The notes beneath the pieces were generated by a model. That model worked only from the letters and a program-made list of their open reading frames with translations, ran no database searches and was not told the DNA's origin. From the NCBI GenBank assembly GCA_964589955.1, contig CAZPVF010000001.1, positions 1 through 62,008 on the forward strand: a DNA stretch of 62,008 nucleotides. The letters run 5' to 3'. The DNA is from Candidatus Woesearchaeota archaeon. GTDB taxonomy: Archaea > Nanobdellota > Nanobdellia > Pacearchaeales > GW2011-AR1. This document shows, piece by piece, positions 51,976 through 52,716 of the stretch (positions within the stretch are counted from its first letter, which is position 1; every line of letters begins with the position of its first letter). Position numbers and translations under genes: made by a program.

Positions 51976-52716
51976 TTATATCTTAATAAGTTGCATTATG
52001 GTGGATAATGACGCAATTTTTTTTAAATCAGGGGATACAGACAGCTGTACACATTTATTATTTAATTTCTTTTTGTCGACGGGAATTCCTTTAAATATTA
52101 GCCTTCCTATATAGTCTCTAATAGAGCTCTCTGTTAGATTTAGTTTTGTTGCAAGGGTCTTATAGTCTGTGAATCCCTTCTCTTCGTCTAGCTGATAAAG
52201 TGTTGAAAAAACAAGAATTTCTTTTTCTGTGAGTCTCTTAAACTTAAGCCTTATTTCTTTTTTAAGGGGCTCTAGACTATCTAAAATTTCTGCAGCACTC
52301 AAAATTGGATTAGGATCTTTAGGAGTAGTTTTAAGCATGATTTTATCGTCAAACAAGTAATTTTCTGTCTGTCTGTCTGTCTGTCTGTCTGTCTGTCTGT
52401 CTGTCGGAACCCCTCCATTTCCAGTGGAAATATGCCTAATTTGGTCATTTCTAGGCTTAATATGTGTCTGATCTGCTGAAGAAATCGTGTTATTTGTGGG
52501 AAAAGGTTCTTTATGTGTCTGAATTATAGGTTTGGTTGTATATTTATTTTTTTTAATAATTTTTAGCTCATCTTGTCTAATTTTTTGCATATCTTTAGAC
52601 AAAAGTCCGAGCCGCCAGTTGACTTCATTAAGTGTGTTTTTTAGTGAATCAATTTCAAAATGAAGTGAATCAATATCTCTTTTTACTTTTTTAAAAGCGT
52701 CTTTAATTTGATCCAT
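51976..52716 (-). CDS. coiled-coil plus C-terminal winged-helix DNA-binding protein (paralog 2) with a (TDRQ)n linker
   Basis: 246 aa; N-terminus FKKVKRDIDSL..EIDSLKNTL; linker TDRQTDRQTDRQ; C-terminus LTEKEILVFSTL...DYKTLATKLNLTESSIRDYIGRL. Confidence 0.6.
   Translation of the reverse strand: MDQIKDAFKKVKRDIDSLHFEIDSLKNTLNEVNWRLGLLSKDMQKIRQDELKIIKKNKYTTKPIIQTHKEPFPTNNTISSADQTHIKPRNDQIRHISTGNGGVPTDRQTDRQTDRQTENYLFDDKIMLKTTPKDPNPILSAAEILDSLEPLKKEIRLKFKRLTEKEILVFSTLYQLDEEKGFTDYKTLATKLNLTESSIRDYIGRLIFKGIPVDKKKLNNKCVQLSVSPDLKKIASLSTIMQLIKI
52365..52405. repeat. tetranucleotide microsatellite (CTGT)10 on the plus strand, (GACA)n on the coding strand
   Basis: Ten perfect units counted directly; lies inside the 51976-52716 CDS between the coiled-coil and wHTH parts. 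Confidence 0.95.
52402..52431 (-). promoter_or_regulatory. ORB-like 30-mer, copy B (inverted relative to copy A; inside a CDS)
   Basis: Reverse complement ATTTCCACTGGAAATGGAGGGGTTCCGACA, 25/30 identical to copy A; encodes ISTGNGGVP. Confidence 0.6.

Follow-up and report, generated by a model that had tools for sequence, protein, structure and literature searches.

The window analyzed here, a stretch of 62,008 nucleotides from a Candidatus Woesearchaeota archaeon (GenBank assembly GCA_964589955.1, contig CAZPVF010000001.1, positions 1 to 62,008 of the forward strand), carries a perfect tetranucleotide tract within the coding sequence of a regulator gene that neighbors the initiator gene orc1/cdc6. 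On the coding strand, the tract consists of tandem ACAG units and is fused to a sequence resembling an archaeal origin recognition box (ORB), named ORB-B in the following. The features on which the analysis centers are listed below, with positions counted from the first letter of the window.

51976 to 52716, minus strand: regulator gene of 246 aa, with a long N-terminal helix/coiled coil, a disordered linker, and a C-terminal MarR/ArsR-like winged helix

52365 to 52404, minus strand: (ACAG)10 on the coding strand, equal to (CTGT)10 on the plus strand, encoding T105-T117 (TDRQ three times plus T)

52405 to 52430, minus strand: ORB-B, composed of the dyad TTTCCACTGGAAA (52430-52418), the spacer TGGA, the G-string GGGG (52413-52410), and the tail TTCCG (52409-52405)

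54463 to 55674, plus strand: orc1/cdc6 initiator gene (Pfam Cdc6_C, Cdc6_lid, and AAA), divergent from the regulator gene

The preliminary description of this DNA had reported ten perfect CTGT units in a regulator gene, encoding (TDRQ)n between a coiled coil and a winged helix-turn-helix (wHTH) domain, and the locus bears out both points. The uninterrupted period-4 tract spans 52364-52405 (TCTG × 10.5), and its ten CTGT units occupy 52365-52404, base 52405 being the C of the following CG and not part of (CTGT)10. No other tetranucleotide repeat longer than 13 nucleotides was found across the 62-kb window, and the 8-mer CTGTCTGT occurs 10 times against 0.61 expected, a count unreached in any shuffle. 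The encoded peptide, P-TDRQ-TDRQ-TDRQ-T-E, corresponds to residues 104-118, and (ACAG)n gives the same TDRQ cycle in all three reading frames. In the AlphaFold model, a helix (residues 2-58) is followed by a low-confidence linker (60-134) and a winged-helix domain (137-245); the terminal helix and the winged helix are modeled confidently, and the linker holding (TDRQ)3 is predicted to be disordered (predicted local distance difference test scores of 36-48). The protein matches Pfam HTH_36, Foldseek returned MarR/ArsR-like folds (MarR-family and HlyU/NolR structures, E values of about 2e-4 to 4e-3), and no matching NCBIfam family was found for the 246-aa protein. It thus shares the C-terminal wHTH fold of MarR/ArsR-type regulators and differs from them by its 57-residue N-terminal helix, its 75-residue disordered linker, and its strict synteny with orc1/cdc6. 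Since the tract is perfect, non-triplet, and coding, a one-unit change would remove the wHTH domain, as had been claimed. In silico, gain or loss of 1 or 2 units gave truncated products of 119-141 aa lacking this domain, and changes of 3 units stayed in frame. With its ten perfect 4-nucleotide units, the repeat is also long enough to slip.

The tract directly abuts ORB-B (coding strand ...TTTCCACTGGAAATGGAGGGGTTCCG|ACAG...), running on from the tail of this ORB-like copy just as described earlier. Published consensus ORBs read CTTCCAGTGGAAACGAAAGGGGT for archaea and GTTCCAGTGGAAATGG-AGGGGTA for Methanomassiliicoccales (PMC4153887, Table 2), and ORB-B (TTTCCACTGGAAATGGAGGGGTT) departs from them only at its first base, at the dyad center, and at its last base. 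Like the archaeal ORB and mini-ORB sites recognized by Orc1/Cdc6 at oriC, it has a dyad-symmetric core, TTCCAnTGGAAA, followed after a spacer of 3-4 nucleotides by a GGGG string, in a form nearly identical to the consensus, and it is one of several copies, inverted relative to one another, near orc1/cdc6 and an AT-rich region. Unlike those sites, ORB-B lies inside a coding sequence, where it marks the protein (ISTGNxGVP, read as I-S-T-G-N-G-G-V-P in the window), and it is extended first by a YTYCR tail, which is conserved, and then by an array of tetranucleotides spanning 40 bp.

To place the composite in its family, homologues were collected at E ≤0.001, yielding 2245 sequences with a best identity of 63%. 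The family amounts to 698 representatives of 50%-identity clusters, and its named members all belong to the Nanoarchaeota (Pacearchaeota/Woesearchaeota). TDRQTDRQ or a near variant occurs at the same position in nearly all homologues. In the protein alignment, I-S-T-G-N-x-G-V-P-T-D-R-Q-T-x-x-Q-T is the sole conserved part of the linker and is free of insertions and deletions; of 150 representatives taken at the 50%-identity level, 134 have the encoded signature. For comparison at the DNA level, we used 80 species-representative genome loci, a ranked and hence biased sample, and a metagenome set made of the first 120 contigs of a longer match list, fetched by a frame-independent DNA pattern. 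The set anchored on the ORB (n = 190) drew on 117 of the 120 metagenome contigs and on 73 genome loci, one of them the window, and a codon alignment was built from 81 genes at the species level. A search of metagenome contigs for a same-species copy, using an exact 34-nucleotide query covering ORB-B and the start of the tract, gave 0 matches.

These comparisons revealed a common composite inside the gene, TTTCCAnnGGAAAY-nnn-GGGG-YTYCR-(ACAG)n, and all 81 species-level homologues contain the ORB, GGGG, YTYCR, and ACAG module within the same gene, which stands in a single frame in 80/80 species-representative loci. An orc1/cdc6 orthologue (64-83% identity) lies upstream in divergent orientation at 56 of the 80 loci, mostly at a distance of 1.5-2.6 kb. 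Every locus with enough flanking sequence has it except L070; at L014 (about 4.4 kb), it is cut by the end of the locus. The composite is thus conserved at the DNA level, in the same register, in the same gene, and divergent from orc1/cdc6 wherever the flank suffices, across a class of DPANN archaea.

Both ends of the array are fixed. Its start lies exactly 5 nucleotides past the GGGG in 190/190 anchored sequences, and ACAG-like units are present in 97-100% of the sequences at unit positions 1 and 3 but in none (0/190) at position 11, which is usually occupied by AAAA or ATAA. Module length is 8-10 units in 168/190, and the only clearly longer module (L027) has gained 12 nucleotides, that is, 3 units, and stays in frame. 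Variant units are few and position specific (ACAA; ACCA at units 5 and 8; ACAC at units 9-10), and perfect 10-unit modules recur in L041, L075, L157, and L183. Tracts interrupted by ACAA or ACCA hold the same length and position and are conserved as well as perfect ones, which argues that the function does not depend on a perfect, mutable repeat. The tract in the window accordingly appears as the fully uninterrupted state of an old 40-bp, 10-unit module. The preliminary description had also suggested that the tract expanded from the ORB tail. A recent expansion is ruled out by the same module length across the 190 sequences, and the suggestion is plausible for an ancient event only.

Constraint on this segment reaches the synonymous sites. 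Over codons 96-114, which cover the ORB and the first 7.5 units, third-position entropy averages 0.24 bit, compared with 1.39-1.50 bit in the N- and C-terminal domains of the 81 aligned genes, and these codons form the global entropy minimum along the gene in a 19-codon sliding window. When only columns with an amino acid conserved at ≥95% are considered, the values are 0.14 versus 1.18 bit (Mann-Whitney p = 9e-7). For example, the ORB-B codons TCC, GGA, GGG, and GTT are 98-100% invariant among the 81 species, and unit 3 retains its synonymous G in 189/190 sequences, giving CAG in place of the preferred CAA. The codons fixed here are ones that this genome otherwise uses rarely (TCC 4%, GGG 12%, GAC 17%, and CAG 27%). 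Because synonymous sites and rare codons are fixed, the amino acid motif would be the shadow of a constraint on DNA or, less likely, on RNA, and the ORB match together with an intergenic ORB copy (see below) points to DNA. Furthermore, most homologues have three occurrences of TCG ACA CAT (or CCA ACA ...) ahead of the ORB, at alignment codons 66-68, 76-78, and 80-82. The ACA codons of these repeats are nearly invariant, their third positions are conserved, and TCG and CCA co-vary. They present the same YCRACA motif as the ORB tail, in a more degenerate copy in the window, and these recurrences hint at a DNA-level function across the linker.

The surroundings of the gene hold further origin-type elements:

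50670 to 50803, no strand assigned: array of nine AAAC(A/G)(G/C)(C/G) motifs, including two AAACAGCTGTTT palindromes (family D2), adjoining ORB-A

50816 to 50844, plus strand: ORB-A, an intergenic full ORB, TTTCCACTGGAAACGCTGGGGCTCCGACA (repeat I2), inverted with respect to ORB-B

53985 to 54010, minus strand: ORB-like site D, TTTCCAAAAGAAATAAAGGGGTG, which together with site C brackets the most AT-rich stretch

54343 to 54357, plus strand: ORB-like site C, TTTCCATAGGAAAT, just upstream of orc1/cdc6

ORB-A agrees with ORB-B in dyad, G-string, and TCCGACA tail, and the G-string sides of the two copies face each other at a distance of 1.56 kb. It is kept with the tail GGGGCTTCGACAC in 9/63 loci, a frequency that rules it out as a universal partner of ORB-B. 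A dyad of the site-C type (TTCCnnnGGAA) lies near orc1/cdc6, 1.5-2.3 kb upstream of ORB-B, in about 30 loci. Within the window, orc1/cdc6 is about 2 kb from ORB-B, and the stretch 54000-54350 is the most AT-rich (9-18% GC), with TATAT-type repeats at 54065-54117; lying between sites C and D, both weaker than ORB-A and ORB-B as ORB matches, it is the likeliest candidate for an unwinding region. Cumulative GC skew in the window turns at about 48-50 kb, which is only suggestive as a sign of an origin at this locus. ORB-B, the inverted ORB-A, orc1/cdc6, sites C and D, and the low-GC stretch therefore give the locus the hallmarks of an archaeal origin region.

The motifs beside ORB-A share an ACAG/CTGT core, and a motif array likewise follows the second ORB in six relatives (L002, L006, L009, L011, L044, and L062). 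One of the winged-helix proteins of the locus may bind to this array, and the AAACAGCTGTTT-type motifs with their ACAG core hint at a DNA-level function next to ORB-A. In five other relatives, a second ORB lies in the gene, or a half-ORB, GGAAATnnnGGGGTT, stands right after the array behind TTCGACA (L036, at 5175 and 5289, L087, L092, L104, and L172), which suggests local duplication of parts of the element. A neighboring paralogous coiled-coil/HTH gene (50935 to 51555, plus strand) carries in its linker a 12-nucleotide tandem repeat, TGTTCAAACAGG × 2.8 at 51228-51261, which encodes VQTGVETGVQT and resembles the AAACAGCTGTTT motif; the linker of this paralogue may be shaped by a DNA element too. 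The intergenic region between the two regulator genes (51556-51975) has 21-25% GC and contains at least four (A/G)TGAGAGTTA-like motifs at spacings of about 40-95 nucleotides (51634, 51728, 51772, and 51812). Between the regulator and orc1/cdc6, three small conserved genes lie on the minus strand (52772-53831), their products being a winged-helix-like protein of 92 aa, one of 135 aa whose family is unknown, and a PRC-barrel protein of 86 aa. The same gene order is found in contigs L201 and L203; in L202, which is truncated upstream, the two genes closest to the regulator are present.

Judged from the sequence comparisons above, the composite is probably an ancient, ORB-linked ACAG cis-element of fixed length that is laid over linker-coding sequence, prone to slippage yet strongly constrained, and not a contingency switch. 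In such a system, Orc1/Cdc6 would bind ORB-B, and the ACAG array, beginning 5 bp past the G-string, would extend the nucleoprotein complex at the DNA level, possibly as a platform for further initiator molecules, the helicase (minichromosome maintenance protein, MCM), or the winged-helix proteins of the locus itself. Since ORB-B lies inside the coding sequence, initiator bound there could in addition act as a gate on regulator transcription. The TDRQ repeat would then be largely a by-product of translation, obliged to stay in frame. The repeat is by nature prone to slippage, and unit deletions do arise and split the gene; it is because selection would remove most of them that we favor a constrained cis-element over a contingency switch.

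Several observations weigh against a constrained cis-element of this kind. ORB-A bears no ACAG array despite having the same tail, and the most AT-rich candidate unwinding region lies 1.6 kb from the tract, beside orc1/cdc6. Changes from D to N and from R to Q are paired (ACAA-ACCA) and leave the peptide charge neutral, which hints at selection on the protein as well. The element was found essentially in this gene family alone, with an open frame in 105/106 contigs (see below), and on these grounds some role for the peptide is possible. When near-identical sequences are compared, the tract stands out as a mutational hot spot, being hypervariable by substitution. One 90%-identity cluster contains five tract alleles (R/K and D/N, that is, ACAG versus ACAA), and three pairs whose flanks are identical or 99-100% identical differ solely in the tract. 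In L012/L097 and L018/L116, for example, differences are confined to the tract within 590 nucleotides of identical flanks; L018 and L116 differ by ACAG versus ACCA at unit 5, which suggests a 12-nucleotide register conversion or a mixed-strain assembly. Finally, frameshift alleles at the tract exist in L201, L203, and L125.

The form of the element invites comparison with the bacterial basal unwinding system, which consists of DnaA boxes, a GC-rich spacer, and DnaA-trio repeats (PMC6669920, PMC8287927). Both have an initiator box, a short GC-rich spacer (GGGGTTCCG here), and a tandem short motif in fixed register, and the ACAG array is free of structure on both strands. They differ in that the initiator here is Orc1/Cdc6 and not DnaA, the units have 4 and not 3 nucleotides, the array is coding, and no AT-rich unwinding region lies directly past it, the sequence after the array being coding with about 30% GC. 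The likeness is thus one of form only, and to suppose that an archaeal initiator or helicase binds the array as single-stranded DNA would be pure conjecture. By analogy, the composite might be a novel type of origin module in archaea, its array phasing an oligomeric origin protein, be it Orc1/Cdc6, MCM, or the winged-helix proteins of the locus, beside the ORB in the manner of DnaA-trios, with occupancy gating the regulator and rare slippage uncoupling its coiled-coil and DNA-binding halves; we regard this extended scenario as doubtful.

The foremost alternative, and the one proposed in the preliminary description, is a contingency locus, in which the regulator would be turned reversibly from its full-length form into a truncated or split one by slippage at the tract, with the repeat selected for its mutability. 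The tetranucleotide loci of Haemophilus influenzae (lic, mod, and hgp) offer the model, with a perfect non-triplet coding repeat in which a unit change truncates the product, and one natural deletion allele of this kind was found here. A protein truncated just after the tract, P0124, traces to contig L201, which carries an exact 4-nucleotide unit deletion relative to the intact and 98% identical L202. Its gene is split into two intact half open reading frames, one of 112 aa for the coiled coil and one of 113 aa for the wHTH domain, the latter with a Met 15 nucleotides past the stop. A second candidate, L203, comes from a metagenome-assembled genome at NCBI; its tract is short, at 6 units, the C-terminal domain lies in the +1 frame, and its closest relative, at 76% identity, is too distant to define the exact indel. 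Repeat number among relatives is therefore neither strictly fixed nor confined to 12-nucleotide steps, the two patterns the preliminary description had named as speaking against a switch. The hot spot at the tract fits this alternative as well, as does the fact that the window holds the longest perfect form, given that switching in Haemophilus is faster with longer tetranucleotide tracts (De Bolle 2000, as cited in PMC11868660). Three C-terminal-only proteins considered as further split alleles (P0218, P0298, and P0269) were discarded as uninformative, their contigs being short, chimeric, or in frame.

The frequency of such alleles tells a different story. We took a census of the reading frame in the 106 metagenome contigs with ≥450 nucleotides downstream, scoring a gene as intact when the ORB frame was open for ≥110 codons. 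The frame was intact in 105/106 contigs, including 35/35 with at least 7 perfect units, in line with the single frame of the ranked and biased sample of 80 species genomes. The sole exception, L125, has 2 extra nucleotides in the tract compared with the near-identical L034, which is not a whole unit. In ten clusters at 90% identity, that is, at the strain level, full-length members were equal in length (232 aa × 12, 236 × 5, 254 × 5, etc.). Out-of-frame alleles from a change in tract length thus make up about 1-2% of the sample. Bacterial contingency loci behave otherwise: unit number varies widely among strains and is seldom conserved among species, whereas here length is fixed and conserved class-wide, at least 98% of alleles are in frame, interrupted and poorly mutable forms are equally conserved, and the gene is neither a surface nor a restriction-modification gene. 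ON and OFF alleles are not both common, and length is not unconstrained. ACAG is absent at unit 11 throughout, selection for mutability alone would leave unexplained the invariant units 1-3 and ORB register, and a regulator linked to an origin would be an untypical gene class for a contingency locus. The comparison of tract length among relatives that had been proposed therefore cuts both ways, yielding a one-unit deletion and a 6-unit allele on the one hand and ten clusters without length differences on the other. Because length, register, and interrupted forms are conserved and the ON state is near universal, mutability would be a side effect, and we consider a dedicated contingency switch unlikely. 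The best reading is that phase variation at this locus is mechanistically possible and is not its dominant behavior.

A short linear motif at the protein level is less likely still. Here ISTGNxGVPTDRQTDRQT would serve as a docking or modification motif in the linker, with the regularity of the DNA being secondary. Its being the only conserved linker segment, the constant location of the element in an open frame, and the conservative character of the substitutions, with D/R-to-N/Q changes paired, would all fit. Such a motif leaves unexplained why third positions show near-zero variation and rare codons are fixed, why the coding DNA matches a canonical ORB, and why the intergenic ORB-A exists; in the structure prediction, moreover, the segment comes out as disordered and of very low confidence.

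Constraint at the RNA level, with (ACAG)n in the mRNA acting as a binding platform or as a translational or frameshifting signal, appears very improbable. The conservation of synonymous sites would fit it equally well, the stretch is unstructured, and all frames give the TDRQ cycle. The array is nonetheless in fixed register with an ORB, a clear DNA site. No Rfam family matched the tract, the mRNA fold around it was no better than shuffles (z = +0.66), and no complementary partner is conserved; third-position entropy is not low at the gene's only CTGTCTGT, and third positions at its one complementary CUGUCUGU are not conserved. A search for hairpins or non-B DNA found that neither strand of the tract pairs, folding being limited to the ORB dyad. 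Just as improbable is a selfish or neutral microsatellite, its perfection kept by slippage and conversion and selection acting on frame and length only. It would accommodate changes within the tract that resemble 4- or 12-nucleotide register conversion (L018/L116 at unit 5, with identical flanks). It gives no reason why the array always starts at the same point and stops hard at unit 10, why it is fused to the ORB in 190/190 sequences, or why position-specific variants such as ACCA at units 5 and 8 are common to many species.

A constrained, ORB-linked cis-element thus remains the reading we favor, and it seems to be undescribed. A literature search on ORBs in DPANN archaea or Pacearchaeota and on TDRQTDRQ or ACAG-repeat strings returned nothing relevant, and no account was found of ORBs in coding sequence, of tetranucleotide arrays attached to ORBs, or of DPANN origins. 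We rate the composite as an origin element of the ORB type whose extension by a repeat and overlap with coding sequence are without precedent. A full ORB with a 40-bp array in a gene beside orc1/cdc6 would offer a class-wide signature for locating origins in hundreds of uncultured genomes. It would also be a clear case of a cis-element imposing a conserved protein "motif," and a caution for the reading of motifs in disordered linkers, as well as a microsatellite whose length has stayed fixed over deep evolutionary time, against the usual behavior of repeats. How widely phase variation is distributed among archaea figures as an open question in a 2025 review, and L201, L203, and the perfect 10-unit alleles are the first concrete candidates for asking whether repeat-mediated gene switching exists in these organisms. 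Should the array phase an oligomeric origin protein, a single sequence would combine the layout of a replication origin with a mutable genetic switch.

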